From Candidatus Doudnabacteria bacterium (GTDB taxonomy: Bacteria > Patescibacteriota > Doudnabacteria > UBA920): DNA of 64,000 nucleotides. Below, in pieces: positions 9,663 through 53,708 of this stretch. Position numbers and translations under genes: made by a program. The stretch covers positions 85,347 to 149,346 of the forward strand of contig JACRDK010000004.1 in the NCBI GenBank assembly GCA_016218585.1, in the 5' to 3' direction. Below the pieces are notes generated by a model. That model had not been told where the DNA came from. It did no database searches and saw nothing but the letters and a program-made list of their open reading frames with translations. Positions within the stretch are counted from its first letter, which is position 1. Each line of letters opens with the position of its first letter.

Positions 9663-9687
9663 TTTTAATTAAATCGGCAAACCGACT

Positions 9688-14474: not shown

Positions 14475-15995
14475 ATGTTTAGTGATAAAGTATACCAATT
14501 ATATAAGCCTTTCCGAAATCATTTACGTCATGTGGCTGTAGAAAATGCTTTCTTTGTGATTTGGGCATATGCCAATTTTTTTCAATTTGATACACCATTT
14601 CCAAAAAATATTGAAGTACACCAGGAAATACACAAAACAAAAAACTTACCCAATAGACCTCTGCACGAATGGGAGTTATCTTTGTTGGCAAGAGAAATAG
14701 TAATTAATGGGCAATCCTCGCTATCATTTGCTACAAAGAGCTTTCAAAATTGGATGTATTTTTCTGATGCCATAAACAAGTTAAAAGACTTTGAAAATAA
14801 AGCTTGGCCTGTTTTTGGAGGAATGAACAATATTCAAAAAGAAATCAGAAGAATAAGCCACCGTCAATTTCCTTGGCAGGCAAGAATCAATACTTCATTT
14901 TTTCTTAGGTATTATAAAATTTACAATAATCCCCTAATAAGCAAAATAATTGAAGAAAAAATTGGTATGACCTTACAGCAATGGTATACCATCGGAACAG
15001 CTTTGTTTGGCGCCACCTTAACTAATCCAAAATTTAACATTGACACTGAAATTTCAATATCCAATATAACAATGATAGAATTTAATAAATTTCTAAATCA
15101 TACATCAATTGGCCTTGATGACTTAAAAAAACTAATAAAAAAAGAAGTCTACTTTGATGATAGATTTATATACAGTTTTAATCCCCTAGAATACTACCCT
15201 TTAATTAACATAGGGCTATATTACTACTGTCCAATTCCAACCCTTTTAGCGTGGCGTATTACCTCAGGAATATATTTTGATTTAATTAATGAAAAAAGTT
15301 TTGGGCATCCTTTTGGTTTTGCTTACCAGAATTATATCGAAGAGATTACTAAAGTAGTTTTAGATAAGAAACAATATTCTGTTCATCCCGAACAAAAATA
15401 CATAGTAAATGGCGGTTCTCAAGATAGTATCGATTTAATAGTTAGTCAAAATAATTCGGCTTTATTCATTGAAGCCAAAGCTAAAAGACTTACCGTTAAA
15501 TCAAAAAGCGAGCTAGTTTCTGATTCAAATTATGACAAAGATTTAAATACTTTAGCAGATGATGTTGCTCAAGCATATGCAACGATAGATGATTATTTAG
15601 GAGGCTGTTATAAACATTTTCCTTATACAAATGAGATCAAAATTTATCCATTAATTGTTACCTTAGAAGAATGGTATTTATTAGGCGAGGATGTAAAAGC
15701 ACTAAGAGAAAAGGTTAAAATCAAAATTACCCAAAAAGGCTTAGCACTTGAATATTTGGACTCTATGCCTTACACTGTTTGCTCCACCGTCAATTACGAA
15801 GCATTTGTTCAAATTCTGAATAAACATTCAATTGTGGAGGTTATGGATTTATGGCTCGACCCCGAACGATATGGACATAATTTTGGACAATTTCTATCTA
15901 CCAACTATAAAAGAGAGTATAAATTTATTGACGACTATTTCCCTGGCGAGTTTGAAAAAATATATCCTAAGGGAATCATTTCAGAATCTATTTAG
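14475..15995 (+). CDS. Hypothetical protein (506 aa) in AT-rich islet; C-terminal region with a PD-(D/E)xK-like nuclease motif
   Basis: No recognised family; motif SIDLIVSQNNSALFIEAKAK (D-x12-E-A-K) resembles the PD-(D/E)xK core; local GC clearly lower than neighbours. Confidence 0.4.
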   Translation: MFSDKVYQLYKPFRNHLRHVAVENAFFVIWAYANFFQFDTPFPKNIEVHQEIHKTKNLPNRPLHEWELSLLAREIVINGQSSLSFATKSFQNWMYFSDAINKLKDFENKAWPVFGGMNNIQKEIRRISHRQFPWQARINTSFFLRYYKIYNNPLISKIIEEKIGMTLQQWYTIGTALFGATLTNPKFNIDTEISISNITMIEFNKFLNHTSIGLDDLKKLIKKEVYFDDRFIYSFNPLEYYPLINIGLYYYCPIPTLLAWRITSGIYFDLINEKSFGHPFGFAYQNYIEEITKVVLDKKQYSVHPEQKYIVNGGSQDSIDLIVSQNNSALFIEAKAKRLTVKSKSELVSDSNYDKDLNTLADDVAQAYATIDDYLGGCYKHFPYTNEIKIYPLIVTLEEWYLLGEDVKALREKVKIKITQKGLALEYLDSMPYTVCSTVNYEAFVQILNKHSIVEVMDLWLDPERYGHNFGQFLSTNYKREYKFIDDYFPGEFEKIYPKGIISESI

Positions 15996-24071: not shown

Positions 24072-25031
24072 TCAAAATAACTTGTTGAAGCCAGCTGTAT
24101 TAATAAAGAAATTGCCAGTATTCAACTTCAGTGCATTATTTATATCTACTTTTTGACTTTCAATTTTATTTAATGGGCTTTCGCCATCATCAAATTCATT
24201 ATTTTTCAGAATGCTTTTTTTAATTGCATTTTTTAATTTTAAATTCTTAGAAAACAATAAATTGAAATACGCACCATCTAAAAATGAAACCTGATGGAAT
24301 TTTGAATTTACTAATTTATTCTTTAGTATATCAATTAATTCTTTAATCTGTTTGTTTTGAGCCCCTCCACTTATACTAATGTGTTTGGCTTCCAAAAAAT
24401 ATATATCTTTACCATTTTTAACACATAAATCCATTTTTTTATTTTGTGAGTCTTTGCCAATCTGGACTTTAAAGTTTTTTAAAATTCCATTCAGGGTAAA
24501 ATCACCTTTAAACTTTGAAACGCTTTTTTTGTTTTTAATAAAGGTTTCGAATTTTTCCGTGTATAAATAACCTTTTGATTTTAAAATCTTTATTAATTTC
24601 TCTTCCCCTGCTTGTCCTTTTTTGCGGGACGAAGTCTTATCAATTAAGGCCTGAATCCACTCTCCAGGTACAATATCATTTAAATCTCGTTTTTCAAGAT
24701 AAAGTTTGGTGATTTTCTCTAAAGCTTGAAGATTTTTAGAAGCCACTTCAACGGTTGCATCACAAGCATTAATAAAGCACCCAAATTCAGAAAACTGGGC
24801 ATTTTTTTCAAGTAAAATAGCAAGGTTGTGATAAATGTTCTTCTCAACTTTTTTTACTTCTTTACTTTTTTGTTTATTTAGTTCTTTGAGAGTAATTAAT
24901 TGATTTTTGATTTCTTGTGTTTTTTTTGCATACAAACTCAAATCCTTATGTTTTTCTATAAACATGTAAGATTCATCTAGTACTGGCTCAGGGTGATTCG
25001 AACAATGTTTGAGCAATTGTAAATTATTCAT
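24072..25031 (-). CDS. Putative Type II restriction endonuclease (PD-ExK) partner of the adjacent methyltransferase
   Basis: Overlaps methyltransferase by 8 nt; Lys-rich AT-rich gene; DLCVKNGKDIYFLEAK fits D-x13-E-x-K. Confidence 0.45.
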   Translation of the reverse strand: MNNLQLLKHCSNHPEPVLDESYMFIEKHKDLSLYAKKTQEIKNQLITLKELNKQKSKEVKKVEKNIYHNLAILLEKNAQFSEFGCFINACDATVEVASKNLQALEKITKLYLEKRDLNDIVPGEWIQALIDKTSSRKKGQAGEEKLIKILKSKGYLYTEKFETFIKNKKSVSKFKGDFTLNGILKNFKVQIGKDSQNKKMDLCVKNGKDIYFLEAKHISISGGAQNKQIKELIDILKNKLVNSKFHQVSFLDGAYFNLLFSKNLKLKNAIKKSILKNNEFDDGESPLNKIESQKVDINNALKLNTGNFFINTAGFNKLF

Positions 25032-26205
25032 TTGCTAATTTTAATGGTAAAACATTTAAATTCTCATACTTGTTGATAATATTATTAAAATAAATGTGAT
25101 TAATTAATTTATACGCAAAATCAAAAGATATTCTTTTTCTATCTTTATCCCTGTAGTTGGTTAGAAATAAAGAACAATAATCCTGCCTTAACTGCTCAAG
25201 ATTCTTATTGAATAAATTAATAATTTTATTTTGAATAGTAACTGGCAGTGGTTCACTAAAAACTAAATATATCATATGGCGGGATGTTGATTTGCTAATC
25301 AAACACTCCACTCCATAGTTTTTTATATTTTCAAGGGCAATCTTCCCCTTATCAGTACCGCTATCAATTGCCTTCAAAAGCATGACATTAGATTTAGTTA
25401 ATTCAGCAAGTTGTTTTGTAACATAAATGTCAACCCTTTGATCAATGTGGTTATATGCTGCTTTTAACTTAATATCCCCTTTCTGATTGTTTATCATTTC
25501 TTCTGTAAGTCTGTATACTCCTAAATTATTATCTTGGTTTTTTATTTTGCTTACAAATTCTCCTCCAATAATCCATCCATATTTTCTTTCTAGTTTAATC
25601 AAAATATCTTTACCCTCAGGATAAATATGTGTTTTAATCTCAAAACCTTCCTTAAAATAATTAGTTTTCTTTACATAATAAAAAGCAATAACGTTATAAG
25701 TGGTATCTGCAAATACCTGCTGTTTGAAATAATTAATTTCAACTATCTCAAACTTGGAGAAAAAAATATCCCTTATACTTTTTGAATTTTCTGCTGAAAG
25801 AAAATTGATTGGAACAATTACTATTCCCTCGTCACTGTCCATAATAGACTGTAATGCTATTTGATATAAATCTTCAAACTGAAATTTAGAAAAATATTTA
25901 AACTTTGTTTCTTTGGTAGCTTTATTTACATTAAGATAGGGGGGGTTCGTAATTACAAATTTAAATTTAAGCGGTGATAAAATATTGTCATTAAATTTAA
26001 TAGTTTTTTTATTTATATATTTTTTATCAATGTCAAAACCCCTGACATTTTTTGCCCCATTATTTTTGGCCCAAACTAACAAGTCCCCATTTCCTGCAAA
26101 TGGGTCAATAACTTCTTTACCTACAACTCTTTTTTCTAGCCCTTTTAATATATAATCTGAGTTGGTTGTAAAAAACTGTCCTAATTGTTTTTTGTTTCCA
26201 GCCAT
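25024..26205 (-). CDS. N6-adenine DNA methyltransferase, gamma class (TaqI/Eco57I-like)
   Basis: GQFFTT (motif X), DPFAGNGDLL (motif I FxGxG), NPPY (motif IV) in gamma order. Confidence 0.8.
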   Translation of the reverse strand: MAGNKKQLGQFFTTNSDYILKGLEKRVVGKEVIDPFAGNGDLLVWAKNNGAKNVRGFDIDKKYINKKTIKFNDNILSPLKFKFVITNPPYLNVNKATKETKFKYFSKFQFEDLYQIALQSIMDSDEGIVIVPINFLSAENSKSIRDIFFSKFEIVEINYFKQQVFADTTYNVIAFYYVKKTNYFKEGFEIKTHIYPEGKDILIKLERKYGWIIGGEFVSKIKNQDNNLGVYRLTEEMINNQKGDIKLKAAYNHIDQRVDIYVTKQLAELTKSNVMLLKAIDSGTDKGKIALENIKNYGVECLISKSTSRHMIYLVFSEPLPVTIQNKIINLFNKNLEQLRQDYCSLFLTNYRDKDRKRISFDFAYKLINHIYFNNIINKYENLNVLPLKLANE

Positions 26206-26914: not shown

Positions 26915-27217
26915 TTAAAATTCTGCTATTTTATAAACCAGCCACAATAACACCACTTGTTGAATTAGTAGAAACCCGACACCAAGGGGAAAGTAGGCTT
27001 TGCGGGTTTTGTGGTGAAAAAAGTACATCCCCAAAAAAATTCCCAAAGAGCCAAATGCCGCGGACATTAAAAAGAAGTTTACTTCCGGCAACCGCTCGCT
27101 GTCATTAACGCTTTTTCTTTTATCTATCCCCACCATTATAAAAGCGGCAACGTTTATTATTGCTAAAGCCAAATAAATTAAATTAAAATAATTTTCCATA
27201 ATTACTTTTTCTTCCAT
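26915..27217 (-). CDS. DUF1294 domain membrane protein
   Basis: GIDKRKS...RLPE...GSLGIFLGMYFFHHKTRK matches DUF1294 signature. Confidence 0.75.
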   Translation of the reverse strand: MEEKVIMENYFNLIYLALAIINVAAFIMVGIDKRKSVNDSERLPEVNFFLMSAAFGSLGIFLGMYFFHHKTRKAYFPLGVGFLLIQQVVLLWLVYKIAEF

Positions 27218-27804
27218 TCCTTAATTAATTTATTCTGCAGTTTTTTTGGGAGCAAGTATTTTTTTACATTGCTTTGCCGCTGGCGGAACATTTCCGAAAG
27301 GGTTATAGCCGCAGTAACAGAGAGATTAAAGCTTTGCACAAAACCCTGCATTGGAATATAAATATGCGCGTCGGAAAGATCTATTGCCTCTTTACTTAAG
27401 CCTCGGTGTTCATTGCCAAACACCAGCGCGGTCTTTGGTCCTTTAAGGTCTGTTTTATACAAACTTTTTGCCTTCTCGTCTAAAACCGTGGCAAAAATTT
27501 TGTATCCCTGTTTTTTTAATTTTTTATAACATTCGCGCGCGGAAGAAAATATTTCAAACTCCAGCCATTTGTTAGCGGAAGAAGAAGTCGCCTTCCCAAC
27601 TTTGCGCGGGTTAAACCTCTCCCCTTTGTCAAAAATATAATATACCTTGCCAATGCCAAAACCTTCACAGCTCCGCAAAACCGCCGCCGCATTATGCGGG
27701 TCATGTATATCTTCCAATACTACTATCCCCTCCTGCCTGGCCGTGGCCACAGTTTTAATTTTATTTAACCTTGCTTCGCTTATCATAATTATTATCCCCA
27801 CCAT
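27202..27804 (-). CDS. SpoU/TrmH family RNA 2'-O-methyltransferase
   Basis: HDPHNAAAVLRSCEGFG, ALVFGNEHRGLS, IPMQGFVQSFNLSVTAAI (SPOUT motifs). Confidence 0.8.
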   Translation of the reverse strand: MVGIIIMISEARLNKIKTVATARQEGIVVLEDIHDPHNAAAVLRSCEGFGIGKVYYIFDKGERFNPRKVGKATSSSANKWLEFEIFSSARECYKKLKKQGYKIFATVLDEKAKSLYKTDLKGPKTALVFGNEHRGLSKEAIDLSDAHIYIPMQGFVQSFNLSVTAAITLSEMFRQRQSNVKKYLLPKKLQNKLIKEWKKK

Positions 27805-27854
27805 AGGCTAATTCGTGCGAATTAGCCTATGGTGGATTTTGGCTTTTTTAATAT

Positions 27855-28409
27855 TTAAGACTTTAATAACATAGAAAATTTTTCCCGAAACTTTTTAACC
27901 TTTGGGCTTATAACCACGGCGCAGTATGGGTTGCCGGGATTGTTTAAATAATAATTCTGATGATAGTTTTCCGCCAAGTAAAATTTTTCTAAAGGGCGAA
28001 TTTCGGTAACAATTGGCGAACTATAAATTTTTTCCGCTTCAACTTCTTTAATTACTTCTTCGGCAACTTGCTTCTGCTGCGGCGAGCTATAAAATATAGC
28101 CGAGGCATACTGAGCTCCCACGTCATTGCCCTGCCTGTCTTTGGTAGTCGGATCGTGCACCGCAAAAAATACTTCCAATAATTGTTTAAAGGAAATTACG
28201 CTTGAATCAAATTCTATTTTGGCAACTTCTACGTGTCCCGTATTACCGCCACAAACCTGTTCATAACTCGGGTTTTCCAAACTGCCGCCAGTGTATCCAG
28301 GCAAAACCGAACTTACACCTTTTAAGTTTTGAAACACCGCTTCCGTGCACCAAAAGCAACCGGCACCAAGAACGGCTATTTCTGTTTGTTGATTTTGATT
28401 ATTCATCAT
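27855..28409 (-). CDS. msrA: Peptide-methionine (S)-S-oxide reductase MsrA
   Basis: GAGCFWCTEAVF active-site motif, GY(T)GG. Confidence 0.9.
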   Translation of the reverse strand: MMNNQNQQTEIAVLGAGCFWCTEAVFQNLKGVSSVLPGYTGGSLENPSYEQVCGGNTGHVEVAKIEFDSSVISFKQLLEVFFAVHDPTTKDRQGNDVGAQYASAIFYSSPQQKQVAEEVIKEVEAEKIYSSPIVTEIRPLEKFYLAENYHQNYYLNNPGNPYCAVVISPKVKKFREKFSMLLKS

Positions 28410-28418
28410 AAATAGAAA

Positions 28419-28970
28419 TTAATACACTTTTACTTTAATTATAGCCTCAATAGCTTGCTGTGGGGCGGCTTCCTTTTTTAAACGATAACCATAAAGACCA
28501 CCTTTTTCATCTTTTTCCAAAAATTCTGGATTATACATGGCAACTGCCCCTTTTTCATGGGCAGCTGCATAAGTCAGTAACGGATTTTGATCGTTATCAT
28601 AACGACTTGTTAACTCTGAATATGGGGCGCAAAAAATGATTCCATTTTTACTATAGGTTCCTGTTTGAGCAACTACTTTGGCATCAGATGCGGCAAATCC
28701 GCTATAAAGATATTTCTCTGCTTCTAGTCCTTGCTTTTTCAAATATGCAACAAACCTTTCTATTTTATCAACACTGTCATATCCTTTGGACAAATCCACG
28801 TTGCCTGTTTTTATAACTTTTTTTACTTCACTCTCCTGTTTTTCTTTTGGCTGATTAACAAGTGCGCAATCGGATGCATGTCCAGCATGGTTCGGGTAAC
28901 CGCATGATGGGCAAACAGATCCGGTTTCGTTTTGATTCATTTGATTTATATTAATTATCTCTTTGTTCAT
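28419..28970 (-). CDS. Hypothetical protein with N-terminal CxxC...H...C motif
   Basis: ORF only; CPSCGYPNHAGHASDC. Confidence 0.35.
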   Translation of the reverse strand: MNKEIININQMNQNETGSVCPSCGYPNHAGHASDCALVNQPKEKQESEVKKVIKTGNVDLSKGYDSVDKIERFVAYLKKQGLEAEKYLYSGFAASDAKVVAQTGTYSKNGIIFCAPYSELTSRYDNDQNPLLTYAAAHEKGAVAMYNPEFLEKDEKGGLYGYRLKKEAAPQQAIEAIIKVKVY

Positions 28971-29021
28971 CTACCATCCCTGCCGGCAGGCAGGTACTCA
29001 CTACTCACTACTCACAACCAT

Positions 29022-29525
29022 CTACCTTCCTACCTGATAATAGATATTCGTTCCATTTGGTCCCACGGCAGAAGCTTTTAATACTCCCTGGCCTGCGCCA
29101 ACAGTGGGCTGATTTATACTAGGCAAAGTAATTGGTTCGCTCTCATTTTCCATATTCATATATACCACACAGTGCCCGTCCGCGCTATATTTGTATTTAT
29201 AATTTGTTTTTTCCGAGCTGCCGGTTTTTGGATCAACCGGTAAAAAAGAAGCGTATTGGGCATACTGCGGATATTTAGTTGTTAGTTCAGGCACCAAGTC
29301 CGCTAAGTCATAATCCCCGGCTCCGGCATTGGGCGCGTAGCAGGAAGAAGAATATAACAAACGGCCAATCTGCGCCATATCGGTTTTTCGTTTGGCGTCG
29401 CGCGCCTTTAGCCTGGCTGGCTGTACTGCGACTATTATTATCCCGGCCAACAGGCCAATTATAGCAATTACCACCACCAGTTCAATTATAGTAAAACCTT
29501 GGCTAGTTGTTAGTTTTTTGTTCAT
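29022..29525 (-). CDS. Type IV pilin / pseudopilin (prepilin-type N-terminal cleavage/methylation domain)
   Basis: QGFTIIELVVVIAIIGLLAGIII class-III signal peptide. Confidence 0.8.
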   Translation of the reverse strand: MNKKLTTSQGFTIIELVVVIAIIGLLAGIIIVAVQPARLKARDAKRKTDMAQIGRLLYSSSCYAPNAGAGDYDLADLVPELTTKYPQYAQYASFLPVDPKTGSSEKTNYKYKYSADGHCVVYMNMENESEPITLPSINQPTVGAGQGVLKASAVGPNGTNIYYQVGR

Positions 29526-29589
29526 AGTTGTTAGTTTTTACTTGTATACCCACATCCTTGTATCCTTGTATCCTTAAATACTTACCCCC

Positions 29590-29901
29590 TTACTTCTTCC
29601 ATCGATATTTTTCCATATCCAAGCTAAAGTCTCTTTCTATTTTTATTCCTTCTTTTTCCAATAACTGTTTTTGCAAATCTTTTGTCGCTGTCCAGTTCCC
29701 CTTTATACTAATAACTCCCCCATTGTTAACAACCCGCCACCAGGGAACTTTTTCTGCTGTTGTATCGATGCTGCGCAAAATTCCGCCAACCTGCCTGGCC
29801 GCCCGAGGGCTTCCGGCGGCCGCGGCCGCCTGGCCATAACTAACTACTTTGCCTTTGGGAACTTTTTGCAAAAATTTTATTACATTTTCTTTAAAACCCA
29901 T
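29590..29901 (-). CDS. Alkyltransferase-like (ATL) protein: MGMT DNA-binding domain lacking the acceptor cysteine
   Basis: HTH SYGQAAAAAG...; PWWRVV in place of canonical PCHRVV (Trp replaces Cys, as in ATL proteins). Confidence 0.65.
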   Translation of the reverse strand: MGFKENVIKFLQKVPKGKVVSYGQAAAAAGSPRAARQVGGILRSIDTTAEKVPWWRVVNNGGVISIKGNWTATKDLQKQLLEKEGIKIERDFSLDMEKYRWKK

Positions 29902-30439
29902 AAGCCCTAAGCTCCGCTCTTAACTGTTTGTAATTTGGCGCCGCCTTTGCTACTTCCGCCCAAAATTTTCGGCTATGGTTAAATTCTTTTAAATGGCAAA
30001 CCTCATGCACTACTAAATAGTCCAGCAGTTCAGAGCGCAAATGAACAATCCGGTAATTAAAATTTAAATTCCCTTTCCTACTGCAACTGCCCCAACGGGT
30101 TTTTTGGTTCTTAATTGATATGCGTTGGTAATTAACCCCATAAAATTCCGCCCACTGTTTTACTTTGGCTTGCGCCAAACTTAAAGCCTGGTGTTTAAAC
30201 TTTTTATACTCGCCTCTCACCGCTTTGGCTTTCGGCTTAACCGGATGGGTCTTAAAGTATTCCAGCGCTCGCTTTATCCAGGACAGCTTAGCCGCAACAA
30301 ACTTTTCAGCTGCTCTAATAGCCATACCGGATGGCAGGGTTAATGTAACCGTAGAATCGCAAGCAACCGCCAAGCGCATTTTACGCGCGCGGCGGCTTAC
30401 TTTAATTTGATACGGGACAGAATTATTGTCTTTCAACAT
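29891..30439 (-). CDS. YgjP-like metal-dependent hydrolase (DUF45/M48-like, HExxH)
   Basis: VHEVCHLKEFNHSRKFW motif. Confidence 0.75.
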   Translation of the reverse strand: MLKDNNSVPYQIKVSRRARKMRLAVACDSTVTLTLPSGMAIRAAEKFVAAKLSWIKRALEYFKTHPVKPKAKAVRGEYKKFKHQALSLAQAKVKQWAEFYGVNYQRISIKNQKTRWGSCSRKGNLNFNYRIVHLRSELLDYLVVHEVCHLKEFNHSRKFWAEVAKAAPNYKQLRAELRAYGF

Positions 30440-30444
30440 TCAAA

Positions 30445-30906
30445 TTATTTAAAAATTACGGGAATTTCCAGAGCCGCGTCGTTTTGCGGCAGGCCGGATG
30501 GGTTATCTTTTTTCAAAATTAAGCTGCCGTTGTTCTTGTAACCGGGTTTAACAAATTGTAAAATGGCTTCAAAAGGCACAAAGTTTTCCGTCATCCAATC
30601 CCCGTTGGCTTTGGCAATCCCTTGGGCAATAATTTTACCGTCCCAATCGGTTAAGATTACCGGGAAGCTGGCTTCAAAAAACCACGTCCCCTTAGCCTCG
30701 CCGGTAATTGTCAGCGGGCTGGAGATTTCCTGATGCTCTTTAATATTTAAATTTCTAATATTTTCATTGGCGGCATTAACAGTATTATTTACGGACTGAT
30801 TTTCAACCTTACTCCCTTTCTTGCCGGAAAAAAGCCAAATCCCGCCGGCAACCAACAAAATTACAGAAACAAAAATTAAAGCTCTGTGTTTTGGCTGAAA
30901 AATCAT
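30445..30906 (-). CDS. Membrane-anchored Gmad2 immunoglobulin-like domain protein
   Basis: TM anchor; SPLTITGEAKGTWFFEASFPV...GDWMTENFVPF. Confidence 0.55.
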   Translation of the reverse strand: MIFQPKHRALIFVSVILLVAGGIWLFSGKKGSKVENQSVNNTVNAANENIRNLNIKEHQEISSPLTITGEAKGTWFFEASFPVILTDWDGKIIAQGIAKANGDWMTENFVPFEAILQFVKPGYKNNGSLILKKDNPSGLPQNDAALEIPVIFK

Positions 30907-30911
30907 AAAGG

Positions 30912-31523
30912 TTAAGACATTTTAATTTTACGATATCGCCACAAAAATAAACTCGCCGCAAAAATTGCTCCCAGGGTGTCGGCCAACATATCTTTTTGCG
31001 CATCCCAAATATCTCCTTGGCTGCCCAAAAAAGCAATTCCCGCGCTGCCGCCGTTAGTTATGGCGAATATCCATTCAATTAATTCATAGCCCATAGCTAC
31101 AAAGCCAATGGCAAAAACCGGAAACAAAAATAGCATGATTTTATTTTTTACCAGCTGCTTCATATATAAAAGCTCGGCAATGGCATAAGCATAAAAACCA
31201 ACGGTAAAGTGCGCCACGCGGTCGTAATGATTGCGCTCAAATCCGAACAAGTTAGTAACAAAGCCAAACGGCACGCGTTCAAAGGTATAATATCCGCCAA
31301 TAGTATGCATAAACAGCAACACGCTCATTAAAATATAGGACAGCGGAGAAAATTTAATTCCCTTGGCGTACATAACAGCTAAAGCAATGGCGATGGCGGA
31401 AATGGGAACATTTTCCGCCCACCAGTCCGCCCGGTCATAGGGATTTATGGCGCAAACAACAAACAATATTATATAGAGGACAAATAAGATTTTTGCCGTA
31501 GTGTCGGTTTTAAAAAAATTCAT
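30912..31523 (-). CDS. DUF2238 (YjdF-like) membrane protein
   Basis: HTIGGYYTFERVPFG...FGFERNHYDRVAHFTVGF. Confidence 0.7.
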   Translation of the reverse strand: MNFFKTDTTAKILFVLYIILFVVCAINPYDRADWWAENVPISAIAIALAVMYAKGIKFSPLSYILMSVLLFMHTIGGYYTFERVPFGFVTNLFGFERNHYDRVAHFTVGFYAYAIAELLYMKQLVKNKIMLFLFPVFAIGFVAMGYELIEWIFAITNGGSAGIAFLGSQGDIWDAQKDMLADTLGAIFAASLFLWRYRKIKMS

Positions 31524-31738
31524 ATTTTTTCTTCGGCTGTGTAGCCGACTGTTTTAATTATGCCTTTTATTTTTTCCAGGCTTATTTTGCTTTCATCAAA
31601 CTCCACCGAGATTTGGGCTTTAGCATAGCTAGTGTCCGCCTTAATAACTCCGTCCGTGTCTTCCAACTCCCCGTCTATATTCATAGAACAGGAAGAACAG
31701 TGCATGCCATTTATTTTTAAAATTACTGTCTGTATCAT
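31520..31738 (-). CDS. copZ: Copper chaperone CopZ (HMA domain)
   Basis: GMHCSSCSMNI MxCxxC motif, 72 aa ferredoxin-like. Confidence 0.85.
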   Translation of the reverse strand: MIQTVILKINGMHCSSCSMNIDGELEDTDGVIKADTSYAKAQISVEFDESKISLEKIKGIIKTVGYTAEEKI

Positions 31739-31900
31739 AGCAATTCTTAGTAAAACGTTTTTATAAAAAATAAAGCTTGTAAATTTCTAATTACTAATTA
31801 TTCTAATTTCTAAACAAACCCTAATTCCTAATATCCAATAAAATAAAGGCGAATTAGACATTTAATCATTGGAGATTATTTAGATTAATTAGAAATTAGG

Positions 31901-32932
31901 TTAATTAACATTAATTGTCCCTCTATACATTCCCATACTGCACATAAAGGCAATTTGAGTTGGTTTGCTTGGGCTATGAAAAGTTACCTCGCCGCTGCTG
32001 CCCAGCGGAACAACTTTTTGTACCCCCAATGAAGGGATGGTGAAATCCTGAACGCAGCTGGAACCGCCTTGATTCACTAATTTTATTTTTATATCTGAAT
32101 CTTTTGGCACGGAAAAACTGTTTGGGCTATAACCGGAAGCGCCTATGGTAAGAGTAATGTTTGAATTAGTTTCCCCAACCGCGGTTTGGTTGCCGCTTGG
32201 GCAATAGGCAATGGCGCAAAAAGCTCTGCTTCCAATATCCGTAAGGCTAATTGGCTTGCCGGTTAGCGCCAGCGCGTTATTTAAATTAAACAAAGACAAC
32301 AATATTATGGCAAAAGCGGCGGCGCGAAAAAACTTTTTATGCCAAAAGTCTCCCAAACGAGTGGCAAAATATCCGAGCAAAAAAAAGATCGGGCTGGTTC
32401 CCAAAACAAACGCATACATTATCCCCGCTCCCCTAATAGCGCTGCCGCTGGCTATTGCCAAAGCCATCATGGCCTGGGTTGTACCGCACGGAATGAACAC
32501 CGTAAAAGCCCCCAAAATTGCCGGCGCAAAAATATCTTTACTCTTTGACTGTTTTCTAACCAACCGAGTTAAAAACTTTGGCGGCTGAATTATGAAATAG
32601 CGGAAAAACGGGTGCACGTCTAACAAAGCCATAGCGGTGCCAAACATAAAAATCACCACGGCAAATTGCATAACCAATTTTACAGTGAGCGATAAAGCGA
32701 ACAACGAACCAAACCAGCCAAGAAGCAAGCCTAAAATTGTATAAGCCACAAGCTTCGCCAGCAAAAACCACAAAATTGGCGCAGCTGTTCCTTTTTGCGC
32801 TTCACCCTTTAGCCGCTCCTCTTCCCGCTGAGCAATGGTTGAAGCAAGCAGCCCGCCCTGTACGGCAAGGCAAGTAAGCCCTCCGGTTAGCAGGCCTGTT
32901 AAAAATATTGCGATAAAGGACGTATTTTGCAT
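31901..32932 (-). CDS. Membrane protein: DsbD_2/CcdA-like transmembrane domain fused to a C-terminal cupredoxin-like domain
   Basis: N-terminal FLTGLLTGGLTCLAVQGG; 6-7 TM; C-terminal beta domain with CxxxC...C...M (CAIAYCP, SSCVQDF, FMCSMGMY). Confidence 0.5.
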   Translation of the reverse strand: MQNTSFIAIFLTGLLTGGLTCLAVQGGLLASTIAQREEERLKGEAQKGTAAPILWFLLAKLVAYTILGLLLGWFGSLFALSLTVKLVMQFAVVIFMFGTAMALLDVHPFFRYFIIQPPKFLTRLVRKQSKSKDIFAPAILGAFTVFIPCGTTQAMMALAIASGSAIRGAGIMYAFVLGTSPIFFLLGYFATRLGDFWHKKFFRAAAFAIILLSLFNLNNALALTGKPISLTDIGSRAFCAIAYCPSGNQTAVGETNSNITLTIGASGYSPNSFSVPKDSDIKIKLVNQGGSSCVQDFTIPSLGVQKVVPLGSSGEVTFHSPSKPTQIAFMCSMGMYRGTINVN

Positions 32933-32946
32933 TTAACTAATTTAAA

Positions 32947-33417
32947 TTATTTTTGTTTAATTTTTTTATATAACATGGCAATGGTTAGCAACAGCGCCAC
33001 CCAAACTAAGACAACCGTAATAACGCACATTAACGAATACCAAACAAACTGATGACCATAACCTGACATCATGCCAAACGGAGCAGCCGACATCATGTTA
33101 AAACCATATTGCTGATTTCTTAGCGCCGGGACAGACGAGGTAAAAGTCATTACCGGGTAACTGGGTTTAATTAATCCATACATGTCTTTTTGTTCGTCGG
33201 AAGTCAACTGGCCATTTTGCAATTTTTCCATATAGCCCTCTATTTTTTGAGCATTAGCATCCTGGCTTATTGTTACCGCTCCGCTGCCCGATTGTACTCT
33301 GGTCGTATTCATCATGCCATAACCCGGAACCAGAGCCGCCGCCATTGTGGCCCCTGCCGGCAATAAAATAGCTGCCGCTAAAACTAATCCTAAGAAACTT
33401 TGTTTTTTGGTTGTCAT
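32947..33417 (-). CDS. Met-rich membrane-anchored protein, possible copper-binding accessory protein
   Basis: Signal/anchor plus MMNTT, FNMMSAAPFGMMSGYGH Met motifs, C-terminal TM. Confidence 0.4.
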   Translation of the reverse strand: MTTKKQSFLGLVLAAAILLPAGATMAAALVPGYGMMNTTRVQSGSGAVTISQDANAQKIEGYMEKLQNGQLTSDEQKDMYGLIKPSYPVMTFTSSVPALRNQQYGFNMMSAAPFGMMSGYGHQFVWYSLMCVITVVLVWVALLLTIAMLYKKIKQK

Positions 33418-33491
33418 ATTTTTCTTTTTAATTGTGTTTGTTCTTAATTTACTTATTATCCTTACATACTTATGTCCCTATATACTTACAA

Positions 33492-39253: not shown

Positions 39254-39282
39254 TTGACAATTATGTCAATATATGATATAAT
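39254..39282 (+). promoter_or_regulatory. Perfect consensus sigma70 promoter with palindromic -35 region
   Basis: TTGACA (39254-39259), 17-nt spacer, TATAAT (39277-39282); -35 is part of the palindrome TTGACAATTATGTCAA; followed by RBS GGAGGA and ATG at 39313. Confidence 0.6.
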
Positions 39283-39309
39283 AATTACCTACTTCTGAGG
39301 AGGAGTATT

Positions 39310-39612
39310 GTGATGAAGGCCATCATTTTAGTATTTTTTTCGCTCTCCCTGCAGTGTACAGTAGGGCAGGAACCCGCCAAACCGGCACCACCGAGCGGTG
39401 TGACTGCTTCGCAGGGTGCAAAGCCGGCACCGGAGAAGAAGACCGGCAACGAACCGCTCGAGGCCTTGAGCCACGAAGAGGGATGTCGACGGGCAAGGTA
39501 TTTCTTCTACCGACCCGATCGATACCTCCAGCTCACCCGCATGAGCGGAAACGAAAACACGGTGCAGAACATGCTTCTGCACCAGATGACGGCAAACGGT
39601 TGCGACTGGTAG
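39310..39612 (+). CDS. Small secreted protein (100 aa), compositionally GC-rich relative to the genome
   Basis: Signal peptide MMKAIILVFFSLSLQCTVG; Pro/Ala-rich linker; two Cys (EEGC...ANGCDW); preceded by consensus promoter and strong RBS, followed by a terminator; chosen over the antisense ORF 39328..39648. Confidence 0.5.
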   Translation: MMKAIILVFFSLSLQCTVGQEPAKPAPPSGVTASQGAKPAPEKKTGNEPLEALSHEEGCRRARYFFYRPDRYLQLTRMSGNENTVQNMLLHQMTANGCDW

Positions 39613-39638
39613 AACCGGTCGCAGCCAACAACACAAAA

Positions 39639-39678
39639 AACGACGCAAGGGACCCTAAAGGCACCCTGCGTCGTTTTC
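39639..39678 (+). terminator. Rho-independent terminator
   Basis: ACGACGCAAGGGACCCTAAAGGCACCCTGCGTCGTTTTCATTT. Confidence 0.65.
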
Positions 39679-39685
39679 ATTTAAC

Positions 39686-49021: not shown

Positions 49022-49217
49022 AAATATATTTAATTATCTCTCCGTTAAATTATAGCAAATAATTGACAAAAAGGCACTATTTATGCTATATTTTATACAT
49101 CTGCCCTAGAGGTTTTTGGGCAATTTTTATTTGATAAATTAGATTTAAGATTGGCGATTTAAGATTAAAGTCTTGTCCCTTCTATAATCTGTTAACTTTA
49201 ATCCATAATCTAATATT

Positions 49218-51056
49218 ATGAAAAGAGACAACATAAGAAATATTGCCATTATTGCCCACGTTGACCACGGCAAAACCACGCTGGTAGACGCCATGCTCAA
49301 ACAGACACAAACTGTGAAAGTCAACGACGACACCAAAGATTTAATAATGGACTCCATGGATTTGGAGCGTGAACGCGGAATTACCATTCGCGCCAAAAAC
49401 GCTTCCCTTATTTACAATGGCACCAAAATTAATATTGTAGACACTCCGGGACACGCCGACTTTGGCGGTGAAGTAGAACGCACCTTAAGAATGGCTGACG
49501 GTGTTTTGCTGTTGGTGGATGCTAAAGAAGGCCCAATGCCTCAAACTAAGTTCGTGCTTAAAAAAGCTTTGGAACTTGGCCTTAAAGCTATTGTGGTAAT
49601 AAACAAAGTAGATAAAGACGGCGCTGCTCCCGATGCAACCGTAGACAAAACTTTTGATTTATTTGTCAGCTTAAACGCCAGCCATGAGCAATTGGATTTC
49701 CCGATTATTTATGCTTCCGGTTTTAAGGGCTTGGCCGACACAGATTTAGACAGCTTAAAAACCAAAATCGCTTCCGGCGCCGAACCAGACGTCGCTCCCC
49801 TGTTTGACGCGATAATAAAATTTATTCCGGCTCCGGATGTAAAACCCGAAGATCCTTTTGCCATGCTCGTTTTAGCTTTAAAGTATGACAACTACAAAGG
49901 CAAGCTTGGTATTGGCAAGATTGTTTCCGGCGGCGTAAAAAAAGCGCAAAACATTGCGCGCATTAACCCGGCCGGGCAAGCAACAGTCGGCAAAGCCACT
50001 GCTTTGCAAATGTACGAAGGCTTGGCGCCAATTGACGTGGAAGAAGCCACAGCCGGCGATATTGTTGCCGTTGGCGGATTTGATGATATTTCCATTGGCG
50101 AAACTTTAACCGACCCAACCAGCCCAATCCATTTAGAGCCCGTGGAAATTGAACCGCCAACCATAAAAATGACTTTTGGCGTGAACACTTCCCCGTTTGC
50201 CGGCAAAGAAGGTAAATTTGTTACCTCCAGAAATTTGCGCGACCGCCTTTATAAAGAACTGGAAGTTAACGTGGCGCTTAAAGTTGAGCCTTCAGAAGAA
50301 GGCGCGGAAAGCTTTTTGGTTTCCGGACGCGGTGAATTACATTTGGGCGTGTTGATTGAAACTATGCGCAGAGAAGGTTTTGAATTGCAAGTTTCTCAGC
50401 CGCAAGTTATTTATCACGAAAAAGACGGGCAGAAAATGGAACCTTACGAAATGGTTACCATTGACGTTCCTTCCGAATACCAAGGCGCGGTCATTGAAAA
50501 TCTTGGACGACGCGGCGGCGAGTTATTGCATATGGATTCTTCCAACAATACCGAATTGCACGCGGAATATTTAATTCCAACACGCGGTCTTATTGGTTTA
50601 AAAAACCTGCTCCTTACCCAGACCCGCGGCACTGTTATTTTAAACAACTTGTTCGACAGCTATAAGCCGGTTCATGAAATTGACACTCACGTTAATGACC
50701 ACGGCAGCTTAATTTCTTCCGAAACAGGCGTGTCTAATGCTTACGGATTAAACAATGCCCAGGAACGCGGTATTTTGTTTATTGGCCCTGCCGTAGAAGT
50801 TTATGAAGGTATGGTTGTTGGTAAAAATGCTTTAAACAGCGATATTGAATTAAATGTTTGTAAGACCAAAAAACTTACCAACATTCGCTCCTCCGGCACC
50901 GACGAAGCAATTATTTTAACTCCTCCCCGCCCGGTAGAACTGGACTTTGCTCTTGAATACATTGGTCCGGATGAACTGGTGGAAGTTACCCCGCAATCAA
51001 TTAGAATCCGCAAAAAAATCCTTTCCGCGACCGAACGCAAACGCGCCGCGAGATAA
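49218..51056 (+). CDS. typA: Translational GTPase TypA/BipA
   Basis: [17 protein letters not shown]1, DTPGHADF G3, NKVD G4, EF-G-like domains. Confidence 0.95.
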
Positions 51057-51069
51057 AAATTATACAAAT

Positions 51070-51105
51070 GAAAACAGCGCTCAAGTCCTCCGGGTTCGAG
51101 CGCTG
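51070..51105. terminator. Bidirectional terminator after typA
   Basis: AACAGCGCTCAAGTCCTCCGGGTTCGAGCGCTGTTTTGTT. Confidence 0.65.
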
Positions 51106-51134
51106 TTTTGTTGCTTGACGGCCTGGTCATTGTG

Positions 51135-51530
51135 TTATCTGATGCCGCCGCTGAACATATTGGCCATTAGCTCGTCCCGATTAGGCCCGCCGAGCCCCGT
51201 TCTGCGAGCAGAAGCAGAACCGGCAGTGCATGGTTGAGATGGCGAAACACTCGCAGTGACAAGCGAGAAATCAACCTCGTCGGGCGAACAAAAAAAATAA
51301 AAGACCAGCTGCTGCGGAAGCATCCACGCATGTCCGTCTTCTATCATTTTGTGATAGAACAGCCAAAGATGATTTATGATTGAAGTCTTTGTCTGCTCAG
51401 TCATGTCTTCAAAACCATCCGTACGATACCATTGCCGAAACAACTCCTCACCAATTTCTAACTGACGATGTTTTGGGCAGTTTGGTTGAGCCGCCTCAAC
51501 CAATAGATCATAAACTTCCTTTTGGGTCAT
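51135..51530 (-). CDS. Hypothetical small protein B (131 aa) of a tandem GC-rich cassette
   Basis: ORF preceded on the minus strand by promoter-like TTTTTTTTGGTATGGTAA and RBS AGAAGGAGGGG; codon usage atypical (CGT, CAG, CTG-rich); C-terminal 40 aa low complexity, possibly read-through. Confidence 0.4.
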   Translation of the reverse strand: MTQKEVYDLLVEAAQPNCPKHRQLEIGEELFRQWYRTDGFEDMTEQTKTSIINHLWLFYHKMIEDGHAWMLPQQLVFYFFCSPDEVDFSLVTASVSPSQPCTAGSASARRTGLGGPNRDELMANMFSGGIR

Positions 51531-51600
51531 AAACCCCTCCTTCTGGATTCACAGACGATTTACCATACCAAAAAAAATAAAAATTGTCTATAAAAACAAT

Positions 51601-51625
51601 GGGCGTCGACATGCTGTCGACGCCC
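51601..51625 (-). terminator. Hairpin terminator separating the two tandem small genes
   Basis: GGGCGTCGACATGCTGTCGACGCCC. Confidence 0.6.
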
Positions 51626-51641
51626 ATTCTGATACCTAACG

Positions 51642-51950
51642 TTATCCGCCACCTACAAGGGAACCCCATTTAATAGGGCTGTTGCTGCCTGGCTTTGTCT
51701 GGGTTTGGATGAATTCATCGAGCCTGGATGTCGGCATCGCTTTGGTCAGATGGACCATACCGATAGTGCCGATTTGGCCGGCCAAGTCACTCTTGGCCTT
51801 TGCAGCGTAGTTGTCGAGGCTGGCAGTAGCACAGACGTGCCTGCCAAAAAGCCTGGCCTCTAGACCGAATTTTGCCAGCAGCGCCTTTGCTGTCTCAAAG
51901 AGGACGCCCTCTCTAAGAACAATGACTATAAGTACAGATCGTTCCTGCAT
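51642..51950 (-). CDS. Hypothetical small protein A (102 aa) of a tandem GC-rich cassette
   Basis: Same duplicated leader (TTTTTTTTGGTATGGTAAGG...GAGAAGGGGGG) upstream on the minus strand; MQERSVLIVIVLREGVLFETAKALLAKFGLEA...; family not recognised. Confidence 0.4.
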   Translation of the reverse strand: MQERSVLIVIVLREGVLFETAKALLAKFGLEARLFGRHVCATASLDNYAAKAKSDLAGQIGTIGMVHLTKAMPTSRLDEFIQTQTKPGSNSPIKWGSLVGGG

Positions 51951-51999
51951 AAGTCCCCCCTTCTCAATCCAACAGAGACCTTACCATACCAAAAAAAAT

Positions 52000-52027
52000 A
52001 AAGGCTGTCCAGAAAAGGACAGTCTTT
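52000..52027 (-). terminator. Hairpin terminator upstream of the cassette (downstream of holA)
   Basis: AAAGGCTGTCCAGAAAAGGACAGTCTTT; second hairpin CCCTCCCCTTATGAGGGGAGGG at 52081-52102. Confidence 0.55.
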
Positions 52028-52103
52028 AAATATTGCCATACGTTTTCTCCAAGAGATTAGCACTTAACAGCCTCTCCCTACCCTCCCCTTATGAGGGGAG
52101 GGG

Positions 52104-53150
52104 CTAAAACAGCTGCACTACAATTAAGTCCAACAAAACGCGCGGCGGGGTGCTGGAGGTTTTAAGCTCTTCATCCAGCGCTTTTAACTTATTTAAAAAA
52201 TCCAAAACTTTTTTATTGGCAAAACGGCTGGCAATTTTCTTCATAACAAACAAGCGGCCGCTTTTCCACCCGGTCATTTCCAAAATATCGCCTTCGGTTT
52301 TCTTTTGTTCAGTTAAATCCTGAATCATGGCAACATTACGGAATTGCTCAGCCAGCAATGCATTTAACTGGATAATTGCCGTTTTTTCGTCTGCGGTTGC
52401 CTGCTGGCGCAAAAATCCATGCATTAACTGAAGCGATTTTTGTTTATCGTTATCGGCAATGGCATTGGTAAGCTCAAATACATCCACTTCCCCATTTTCT
52501 GAAACTAAATTATTTACATCTTTTGCCTGAAGAACAGAACCGTTGGCAAAGGCAGCTAATTTTTTTAGCTCGGAATCGGCCTGCCATAAATTATAAACTT
52601 CTTGAACATCTATAATTTTTCCGCCAACTTTAGTTTCTTTTGCTGCATCGCGGCCCAAGCGAACGGCCAACGCTTCCAAAGCCTCGTTGTCCATTGAAAG
52701 TTTGTAATCCTGAGCGCGTTGTTTTAACCAGTTATTCAATTCTTCCCCGTGCGGCAAAGCAAACTGCCTAACTTCAACTTTTGGATTAGCCAACATTTTT
52801 TTATTGTCGGCATTTCTTTTGTCCAGTTTTTCCTCTAAAAAAATTATATGATTTTTGCCGCCAGCCAAAGAATTTACAATGGCCTCGTCTGCAAATTTGG
52901 CGGCCATATTTCTTAAGACGTAAATTTTTTGCTTAGAAAACAGGTCCTGGCCGGCCAAATCCTCGGCCATAGGCATATTCTCGGCATCACTAAAAATTTC
53001 AGGCTTAATGCCCAATTTTTGCTCTAAAACGGCCACTTGTTGCTGTTTCTCAAAGTCATTTGGGCCTAAAAACAAATATAACATAACTCCCTTGAAAATA
53101 TTAGATAAATATGGTAAAATATCAAAGACTTGAAAATTTGCTACCCTCAC
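52104..53150 (-). CDS. holA: DNA polymerase III delta subunit
   Basis: Length and pattern typical of holA; likely true start at internal MLYLFLGP; moderate. Confidence 0.6.
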   Translation of the reverse strand: MRVANFQVFDILPYLSNIFKGVMLYLFLGPNDFEKQQQVAVLEQKLGIKPEIFSDAENMPMAEDLAGQDLFSKQKIYVLRNMAAKFADEAIVNSLAGGKNHIIFLEEKLDKRNADNKKMLANPKVEVRQFALPHGEELNNWLKQRAQDYKLSMDNEALEALAVRLGRDAAKETKVGGKIIDVQEVYNLWQADSELKKLAAFANGSVLQAKDVNNLVSENGEVDVFELTNAIADNDKQKSLQLMHGFLRQQATADEKTAIIQLNALLAEQFRNVAMIQDLTEQKKTEGDILEMTGWKSGRLFVMKKIASRFANKKVLDFLNKLKALDEELKTSSTPPRVLLDLIVVQLF

Positions 53151-53152
53151 AT

Positions 53153-53228
53153 GGGTCGGTAGCTCAGCTGGTAGAGCAGTAGCCTCTTAAGCTATTTGTC
53201 GTGGGTTCGACCCCCACCCGACCCACCA
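53153..53228 (+). tRNA. tRNA-Lys (anticodon CTT) with encoded CCA
   Basis: Hand-folded cloverleaf: GGGTCGG/CCGACCC acceptor, D-arm GCTC..GAGC, anticodon arm GTAGC-CTCTTAA-GCTAT, T-arm GTGGG-TTCGACC-CCCAC. Confidence 0.85.
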
Positions 53229-53508: not shown

Positions 53509-53583
53509 CTGGTGACCTCGGCAGGAATCGAACCTACATCACTGGTTTCGAAGACCAGTGCTCTATCCATTGAGCTACGAGGC
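53509..53583 (-). tRNA. tRNA-Arg (anticodon TCG) with encoded CCA
   Basis: Reverse complement GGCCTCGTAGCTCAATGGATAGAGCACTGGTCTTCGAAACCAGTGATGTAGGTTCGATTCCTGCCGAGGTCACCA folds as a cloverleaf. Confidence 0.8.
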
Positions 53584-53708
53584 CGTCAGGCGAGTCGAGC
53601 GGATATCCAAATGCCTGTCCGCCTCGGGCGGAAGCTTACGGGTGCATTTATCCCAATAATTATAGCTTAAGCCGAAAGTTTGCGCTACATAGGCCCAATT
53701 ACAAAAAT

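Follow-up and report, generated by a model that had tools for sequence, protein, structure and literature searches.

In a 64,000-nt stretch of the genome of a Candidatus Doudnabacteria bacterium (GTDB lineage Bacteria; Patescibacteriota; Doudnabacteria; UBA920; GenBank assembly GCA_016218585.1, contig JACRDK010000004.1, forward-strand positions 85,347 to 149,346; hereafter the window), the gap of approximately 1 kb between the convergent core genes holA and typA holds two small minus-strand open reading frames (ORFs), ORF102 and ORF131, both recorded in the database as hypothetical proteins of a 174-kb contig. We consider it rather probable that these two genes are lineage-specific accessory cargo of a hypervariable chromosomal slot, equipped with promoter modules that have been reused locally. 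Each would form a cassette of its own, composed of a sigma-70-type promoter of the kind used in the clade, a 5′ untranslated region (UTR) of about 25-30 nt with a strong Shine-Dalgarno (SD) site, the small ORF and an intrinsic terminator, and the layout as a whole suggests two co-regulated, separately transcribed small cytoplasmic proteins insulated from their neighbors. An earlier note made from the letters alone (the original prediction) had placed two minus-strand ORFs of 102 and 131 amino acids (aa) between typA and holA, and both the ORF list and the Pfam assignments of the flanks bear this out.

The shared promoter module, the terminators and the compositional anomaly

Alignment of the two upstream regions reveals a shared module that extends from the -35 hexamer as far as the ATG, is identical at 51 of its 65 aligned columns (78%), and contains an exact 22-nt core, TTTATTTTTTTTGGTATGGTAA, found nowhere else in the window. 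What had originally been described as a duplicated leader is confirmed by this alignment and turns out to be longer than claimed, namely a complete promoter plus UTR. Outside the module the ORF bodies align at only 48% DNA identity, which corresponds to the baseline, and the core 16-mer TTTTTTGGTATGGTAA has exact matches only at these two sites on either strand of the 64 kb. The two promoters, P1 upstream of ORF102 and P2 upstream of ORF131 (Table 1), are predicted to be of the sigma-70 type. They appear to match the clade's own promoter style, as represented by the typA promoters of relatives (T[T/G]GACA-N14-TG[C/G]TAT[A/G]TT), and because of this fit they are not necessarily imported. We rejected the idea that the leader is simply a common genomic promoter motif: the exact module is confined to its two sites, and it is the general extended -10 of the TGGTAT type that is typical of the clade. 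The leader has no match in IMG/VR or in the fetched related loci, and its one match in the JGI metagenomes (L009) lies in the unrelated pilin-gene promoter of a GC-rich organism, at approximately the level expected by chance. A structured RNA or riboswitch in the leaders was also rejected, given the lack of an Rfam match and UTR folds no better than those of shuffled sequences (z -1.9 and -0.8); only three transfer RNAs (tRNAs) in the window reach the Rfam gathering score, and positions 50900..52300 return just sub-threshold chance hits.

Predicted terminators precede both ORFs, T0 upstream of ORF102 and T1 between the two genes, and a third, T2, is common to the convergent ends of ORF131 and typA. 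The original claim of an independent hairpin before each ORF is right as to their existence and wrong in part as to their structure, since the first is not formed by GACTGTCC...GGACAGTC, its 3′ arm being GGACAGCC, and the second, with its 14-bp stem, is stronger than stated. T0 folds as AAAGA-CUGUCC...GGACAG-CCUUU, such that its 3′ arm overlaps, and doubles as, the -35 box of P1. T1 and T2 both reach z <= -5 relative to shuffles. Across relatives the terminator at the 3′ end of typA is conserved in position but not in sequence, and T2 is therefore not assignable to either host or cargo. The 111 nt that separate ORF102 from ORF131 accommodate both T1 and the full P2, and because a terminator of -25.9 kcal/mol and a separate promoter divide the genes, we regard them as independent units rather than as an operon. 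Finally, a 13-mer, TTTATTTTTTTTG, is present in both promoters and a third time inside ORF131; these are its only occurrences on either strand of the window and all belong to this locus. The internal copy contains a run of eight T residues, a slippage-prone site, and may be a recombination or fusion scar.

The two ORFs also stand out in composition. Against a window average of 40.6% guanine plus cytosine (GC), ORF102 reaches 52.4%, with 56.3% at third codon positions (GC3), above all 50 long ORFs of the window, whose GC3 does not exceed 49.7% and which were used as the host set. ORF131, at 47.7%, lies at the upper end of the host range and is not an outlier by GC alone, so that the originally noted GC content of about 50%, differing from the host, applies to ORF102 and not to ORF131. 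The claim of a codon choice unlike that of the host is borne out for both: synonymous codon use falls far outside the host range (z -6.4 for ORF102 and -4.75 for ORF131, with 0 of 252 host chunks as low) and is worse than uniform under the host table. Initiation signals were measured as the best pairing with the anti-SD within the 20 nt that precede the start codon. By this measure host genes show no SD enrichment (mean -1.2 kcal/mol vs. -1.3 for random 20-mers, the strongest host gene reaching -7.7), and the sites of ORF102 and ORF131, SD1 and SD2, are stronger than those of all 50. The SD pattern first reported thus stands as far as strong sites at both ORFs are concerned and requires correction in copy 1, AGAAGGGGGG, which is one G short of it. 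Host start codons lie in A/T-rich contexts, often TTTATG. Strong SD sites on orphan cassettes, as opposed to their near absence from host genes, might offer a simple means of recognizing recent or foreign genes in genomes of this kind, and raise the question of whether the organism's ribosome still reads SD sites.

Each ORF starts 4-5 nt past a perfect SD site and stops 14-26 nt short of a strong terminator, and shuffled sequences keep the frame open with a probability of 0.0086 (ORF102) and 0.00075 (ORF131). On the basis of this fit to SD sites and terminators, the open-frame odds, the structural model of ORF102 described below and the absence of an Rfam match, we conclude that ORF102 and ORF131 are real protein-coding genes, the case for ORF131 being the weaker one.

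The slot in relatives and the two orphan proteins

The locus was compared with 12 related Doudnabacteria loci (labels within L001-L016). In these the order pilB-pilC-pilM-N-O, tRNA, holA, cargo, typA and AI-2E transporter is conserved, with holA and typA pointing toward the cargo, whereas the cargo itself differs nearly every time. It consists of an MFS transporter only (L010, L011); of an MFS transporter, a coiled-coil protein and DUF4342 (L001), to which a 175-aa and a 77-aa gene (L007) or a PaaX-like gene (L002) may be added; of a secreted protein, a membrane protein, an ECF sigma factor and a 76-aa gene (L003, L004); of a GTPase (L005, L006); of a 253-aa gene (L008); of a 269-aa gene and EamA (L012); of DUF2196 and MerR/TipAS (L015); or of a 223-aa gene and a cupredoxin (L016). 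Because the flanks are conserved while the cargo differs between relatives, the holA-typA gap is a hypervariable, insertion-prone slot in this clade. The same genes in the typA-holA regions of relatives had been named at the outset as a finding that would speak against acquisition; neither ORF102 nor full-length ORF131 occurs in any of the 12 loci, and only the 22-residue tail of ORF131 is matched, in L007. We also considered and rejected the gap as a degraded copy of the relatives' cargo (MFS, coiled-coil, DUF4342, ECF sigma and others), with blastn and tblastx detecting nothing except the corresponding 22-codon motif, and as a tRNA-targeted island, with the tRNA-Lys and tRNA-Arg genes lying beyond holA rather than at the edges of the gap and no integrase among the flanking genes scanned.

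AlphaFold2 (AF2) modeling from the single sequence folds ORF102 into a clean beta-alpha-beta-beta-alpha-beta arrangement plus a helix (predicted local distance difference test, pLDDT, 73.6; predicted template modeling score, pTM, 0.64), and by this model the protein is probably a compact cytoplasmic ferredoxin-like alpha/beta protein. Foldseek searches of PDB and BFVD return generic ferredoxin-like folds only (acylphosphatase, ACT, RRM and MTH1187-like; E at least 0.015, template modeling scores 0.4-0.5) and no specific fold match. An exhaustive HMMER search of 1.84 billion representative proteins with ORF102 retrieves the protein itself and one spurious repetitive protein only, ORF102 and ORF131 each return only themselves from 5.8 billion clusters, and neither has a match in PDB sequence searches. 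In line with the first impression that neither protein belongs to a recognizable family, there is no significant match in Pfam, NCBIfam, PHROGs or PADLOC (the sole PHROGs match, at E 0.01, is insignificant). The two proteins are also unrelated to each other, as had been supposed: paralogy is rejected by a BLASTP E of 11 and by the baseline identity of the ORF bodies. Likewise rejected was a relationship of ORF102 to the N-terminal domain of the L007 protein or to PaaX_M, the Cas2-like domain encoded by the slot gene of L002; neither is significant (z 1.3-2.4; no alignment). By eye, neither ORF102 nor ORF131 shows a signal peptide or membrane helix.

The model of ORF131 is poorer (pLDDT 48.9), with four helices at residues 3-80 (pLDDT ~60-70) and residues 81-131 predicted to be disordered, and at this low confidence it yields only noise in fold searches. 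The internal copy of TTTATTTTTTTTG sits exactly between the helical and the disordered parts. Near the end of ORF131, the segment RRTGLGGPNRDELMANMFSGGI resembles residues 82-103, RRNGLGAPNKDTVMAKLLGSNI, of the 175-aa Flp-like protein from the L007 slot (pairwise BLASTP E 5e-6; Smith-Waterman z 8.6-9.1, a score equaled by 0 of 2000 shuffles; tblastn E 0.007 in a search of all fetched DNA). Over these 22 codons identity decreases from codon position 2 to 1 to 3, and there are 4 synonymous differences. Past the motif the L007 protein proceeds to SG/QALVEYAL and two hydrophobic helices, and is labeled 'Flp pilus assembly pilin Flp' in IMG; ORF131 ends with ...MFSGGIR and its stop codon, 2-3 residues short of the point at which the cleavage motif and membrane helices would start. 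As judged from these sequence relationships, ORF131 probably derives from an older slot resident by truncation or as a chimera, with its helical N-terminal domain joined to the tail at the internal T-tract repeat.

The L007 gene for the 175-aa protein (9275..9802), which comes from an independent metagenome (JGI 3300037810), is an insertion relative to L001 with 53.2% GC in a locus of 41.1%. It has a TGGACA-N17-TATTGT promoter in the same TTTTTGGTAT context, the SD site GAAGGAG and a terminator of its own; the gene that follows is served by a second promoter, of the TGGTAT type, in a tandem layout like that of the window. Within the protein, the Flp-like segment is fused in frame behind a soluble N-terminal part of ~80 residues (~100 including the motif). 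A further relative of its C-terminal half (E 5e-4) is the 76-aa protein of L003 (3699..3929, +), which adjoins typA, contains SG/QDIIEFAL and is encoded with 64% GC3 and an SD site of -11.8 kcal/mol. The L003 gene and the L007 segment 9554..9802 (+), both high in GC3 and equipped with a strong SD site, encode small two-helix membrane proteins beside typA that contain the Flp-like motif SG/Q..[IV]E[FY]AL. Pfam and NCBIfam give no Flp match for ORF131, the 175-aa protein, its C-terminal half or the 76-aa protein. In the window itself there is a third cassette of the same style (Table 1), whose 99-aa product (HY918_00885) has a signal-like N terminus, MKAIILVFFSLSLQC, no Pfam or NCBIfam match and a singleton cluster to itself; its gene has 57% GC and 67% GC3 and is convergent with the next gene.

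Accessory cargo and competing explanations

The model that we favor, accessory cargo with local reuse of promoter modules, would involve copying of the promoter/UTR module of one cassette to the other, which would place two unrelated proteins under the same signals without cotranscription. The terminators would shield the cassettes from holA read-through and from convergent typA transcription, and the tail of ORF131 would be homologous to the segment located ahead of the Flp-like membrane part in a protein that resides in the slot of another Doudnabacteria. A foreign origin is suggested by codon use and GC3, by SD sites that are strong in a genome poor in them, by the absence of both genes from relatives and by the turnover of the slot. 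The horizontally acquired two-gene module that was originally suggested is retained only in part: the genes look non-core and foreign-like in GC3, codons and SD sites, and the slot is insertion-prone, but they do not make up one coherent module. The kinship of the ORF131 tail with the L007 slot resident instead favors a gap assembled piecemeal over one filled in a single acquisition. As to function, our best guess is that ORF102 and ORF131 may be small accessory or regulatory proteins, constitutively coexpressed at a high level.

A number of considerations weigh against this model. The promoters, terminators and SD sites of both cassettes are consensus-level predictions, and ORF102 and the N-terminal domain of ORF131 are without homologs. 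The nearest holA relative is only ~61% identical, which implies a poorly sampled lineage, and the orphan status of the genes may partly reflect this sampling. Deep relatives hold similar GC-rich genes with strong SD sites in this slot, and these could be old vertical residents under special selection rather than products of recent transfer, and ORF131 may be a decaying remnant, in view of its poor model, disordered C-terminal half, T run and missing L007-type membrane part. Furthermore, an anti-SD motif was detected in only 48% of Parcubacteria 16S rRNAs (PMC9297842), and a host 16S rRNA without an anti-SD tail, as reported for many Parcubacteria in the same work, would make SD1 and SD2 relics rather than functional signals.

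Vertical descent offers one alternative, in which the two would be native, fast-evolving small genes whose strong signals, G/C-ending codons and terminators are adaptations to high expression rather than marks of transfer. It is compatible with the fit of the promoters to the clade consensus exemplified by the relatives' typA promoters, with the high conservation that promoters can attain vertically (the window and L001 hardly differ over the 48 nt that precede the typA ATG), with the recurrence of GC-rich, strong-SD small genes in the L007 and L003 slots and at 39313..39612, and with the relationship of the ORF131 tail to an L007 slot gene. We nonetheless think it unlikely, as codon choice scores below uniform under the host table, neither the GC3 shift nor the SD sites are seen in the small genes at 27202..33417, assumed here to be pilin-like, ORF102 is found in no relative and nowhere among the 1.84 billion representative proteins, and different lineages carry unrelated cargo in the slot. 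Non-functional DNA, that is, a decaying remnant of earlier cargo or of a foreign insertion with frames that are not expressed, appears quite improbable. The lack of homologs of ORF102 and of the ORF131 N-terminal domain would agree with it, as would the disordered C-terminal half of ORF131, its internal T-tract copy and its end at the point where the L007 protein goes on into the Flp-like membrane segment; the frames are, however, open well beyond chance and placed closely between SD sites and strong terminators, ORF102 folds confidently from its single sequence, and similarity to the relatives' cargo is limited to the 22-codon motif.

Two small neighboring genes that share a strand, identical expression signals, a foreign-like composition and a place in a variable slot also call to mind a toxin-antitoxin, toxin-immunity or anti-defense pair acquired as one module, and toxin/immunity and anti-defense proteins were indeed among the candidates first put forward. 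We find no backing for them and hold such a pair to be very improbable: T1 and a full promoter between the genes argue against an operon, no significant match to either protein emerges from PADLOC, Pfam, NCBIfam or PHROGs (with no PADLOC defense family even at E <= 1), and neither has a known toxin or antitoxin fold, with ORF102 being generically ferredoxin-like (best Foldseek E 0.015) and the ORF131 model returning nothing and being too poor to judge. The derivation of the ORF131 tail from a pilin-like slot gene speaks against it as well. An assembly chimera, in which reads of a GC-richer organism were joined into a Doudnabacteria contig, could produce the step from ~40% to ~52% GC over ~1 kb seen in this metagenome-assembled genome; it is hardly credible when relatives show synteny on both flanks, natural terminators mark the junctions, the promoters are clade-typical and an independent metagenome (L007) has a related cassette in the same slot.

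Beyond the accessory-cargo model itself, Doudnabacteria, with their sparse use of SD sites, might carry a distinct class of self-contained mini-cassettes (clade-type promoter, strong SD site, GC-rich orphan ORF and terminator) that enter or arise in intergenic slots by a copy-the-promoter mechanism, with TTTATTTTTTTTG marking the joints, as 'chromosomal morons' from an unsampled gene pool such as phages of the Candidate Phyla Radiation (CPR) or the host of an episymbiont. In favor of such a class are three cassettes in the window, a further two in relatives and one protein motif in common, which are suggestive but too thin for claims of mobility or mechanism; we regard the class as distinctly doubtful.

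Neighboring features and comparison with known systems

The coordinates of the features are collected in Table 1. The database homolog of holA starts at the ATG at 53084 (self match 326 aa), whereas the longest ORF starts from a GTG at 53150, and AI-2E transporters and the pil operon are further chromosomal neighbors of the locus. The tRNA-Lys and tRNA-Arg genes stand head to head just upstream of holA and account for a local GC peak of ~54%, and relatives show tRNA-like sequence at the same place. The typA of L002 (5098..7017, -) carries a ~26-residue insert, FAPPSPPGEEGMPEGQERSNLGNPDDDKNL, that is present neither in the window nor in L001.

Table 1. Coordinates of the holA-typA locus and of other features in the window
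Feature	Coordinates	Strand	Description
ORF102	51642..51950	-	102 aa; HY918_00940
ORF131	51135..51530	-	131 aa; HY918_00935
Predicted promoter P1	51983..52011	-	-35 TGGACA, 17-nt T-rich spacer, TG-extended -10 TATGGT; promoter scan, alignment with P2 and the L007 promoter
Predicted promoter P2, duplicate of P1	51562..51590	-	-35 TAGACA, 17-nt spacer, TG-extended -10 TATGGT; promoter scan, alignment
Predicted terminator T0	51999..52028	-	AAAGACUGUCC...GGACAGCCUUU then U tract; terminator scan; -13.8 kcal/mol, z -6.3, 0/200 shuffles fold as well
Predicted terminator T1	51598..51628	-	14-bp perfect stem AAUGGGCGUCGACA/UGUCGACGCCCAUU then U-rich tail; between the two genes; -25.9 kcal/mol, z -6.8
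Predicted terminator T2, bidirectional	51071..51109		Common to ORF131 (-) and typA (+); 12-bp exact arms flanked by A/U tracts; -24.0 and -22.2 kcal/mol on the two strands
SD1	51955..51964	-	AGAAGGGGGG; 4 nt upstream of ATG; anti-SD duplex -11.8 kcal/mol
SD2	51535..51544	-	AGAAGGAGGG; anti-SD duplex -12.7 kcal/mol
13-mer TTTATTTTTTTTG, third copy	51289..51301	-	Inside ORF131, codons 77-81; other copies in both promoters
ORF131 tail	51141..51206	-	Codons 109-130, RRTGLGGPNRDELMANMFSGGI; resembles the L007 175-aa protein
GC-rich hairpin	52081..52102	-	CCCCUCCCC/GGGGAGGGG; directly after the holA stop, without U tail; -19.5 kcal/mol, z only -1.2 vs. shuffles
holA	52104..53084	-	DNA polymerase III delta subunit; upstream core flank; Pfam DNA_pol3_delta_C E 1.7e-17; 240 homologs
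typA/bipA	49218..51056	+	Downstream core flank, convergent with the cassettes; Pfam GTP_EFTU, BipA_C, EFG_C
Third cassette of the same style	39254..39680	+	TTGACA-17-TGATATAAT promoter; GAGGAGGAG SD (-11.5 kcal/mol); own terminator
Third-cassette ORF	39313..39612		99 aa; HY918_00885
tRNA-Lys(CTT)	53153..53228	+	
tRNA-Arg(TCG)	53510..53584	-	
typA-upstream element	49063..49135	+	Promoter, hairpin and T tract
Low-GC island	24072..26205	-	28% GC, GC3 ~0.24
506-aa ORF	14475..15995	+	31.5% GC, GC3 0.26

Upstream of typA, some 10 nt past a TTGACA...TGCTATATT promoter, come a small hairpin, TGCCC...GGGCA, and a tract of T residues, and a second, TATAAT-type promoter lies nearer to the typA ATG. The upstream promoter, hairpin and T tract are conserved nearly base for base in L001, L007, L015, L016, L010 and L011; the hairpin element has no Rfam family match, and might represent a tiny RNA or an attenuator in the leader. 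The low-GC island contains an Eco57I-like methylase (E 1.2e-7) and a weak match to a Tsp45I-like restriction enzyme (E 8e-4) and is probably an acquired restriction-modification pair, its composition deviating from the host in the direction opposite to that of the cassettes. The 506-aa ORF, without a Pfam match, is another compositional outlier. In the block at 27202..33417 (-), short tandem repeats directly precede several start codons (~28975..29000, 29530..29580 and 33420..33470), including GTGAGTA in three copies before the gene at 28419..28970 and AAGGATAC in two to three copies before that at 29022..29525.

Among known systems, type II toxin-antitoxin loci have in common with this one two small genes side by side on one strand and a variable setting, but such pairs usually form one operon and overlap or lie a few nucleotides apart, whereas the genes described here are separate transcription units. 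Integron arrays differ as well, in that integron cassettes are promoterless, bounded by attC sites and next to an integrase, whereas these cassettes carry their own promoters; TTTATTTTTTTTG shows no attC-like imperfect inverted repeat, no attC covariance model having been run, and the scanned neighbors are not integrases. In Flp/Fap type IVb prepilins a hydrophobic helix comes after a processing motif, G/XXXXEY (or E[YF]). Over its last 22 residues ORF131 can be aligned with the L007 segment that runs up to SG/QALVEY; ORF131, however, has neither processing motif nor helix, and the motif is recognizable by eye in the 175-aa and 76-aa proteins of L007 and L003.

A closer parallel is provided by phage morons, autonomous accessory transcription units in prophages such as HK97 gene 15, which are defined by their own promoter and terminator, deviant composition and status as extra DNA between genes conserved across related genomes (Cumby, Davidson & Maxwell 2012, PMC3594210). 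Each of the two cassettes similarly has a predicted promoter directly upstream and a terminator directly downstream, a composition and codon use unlike those of its neighbors, and the character of extra DNA relative to syntenic relatives. In contrast to morons, they reside in the chromosome between the core genes holA and typA rather than in a phage or prophage, and their promoters look native to the clade; at neither DNA nor protein level is there a phage, plasmid or virus match in INPHARED, PLSDB or IMG/VR.

Chromosomal hypervariable slots, or genomic islets, between core genes are integration hotspots of accessory genes. The holA-typA gap resembles them in that the order and orientation of its flanks are unchanged across all 12 relatives while the cargo is unrelated between lineages, and differs from them in its very small size (~1 kb, two genes), in a turnover that seems to reuse or duplicate promoter modules, and in the lack of integrase, transposase or att-like repeats in the flanking genes examined. 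Nothing here points to a new type of system, and the SD contrast and the copy-the-promoter pattern are only mildly unusual points within ordinary accessory-gene turnover. The locus adds two orphan families, one of which (ORF102) is confidently foldable, and, with modest practical value, it offers a clean and compact example of such turnover in reduced CPR genomes, in which new genes would arrive as complete expression units with reused promoter modules.

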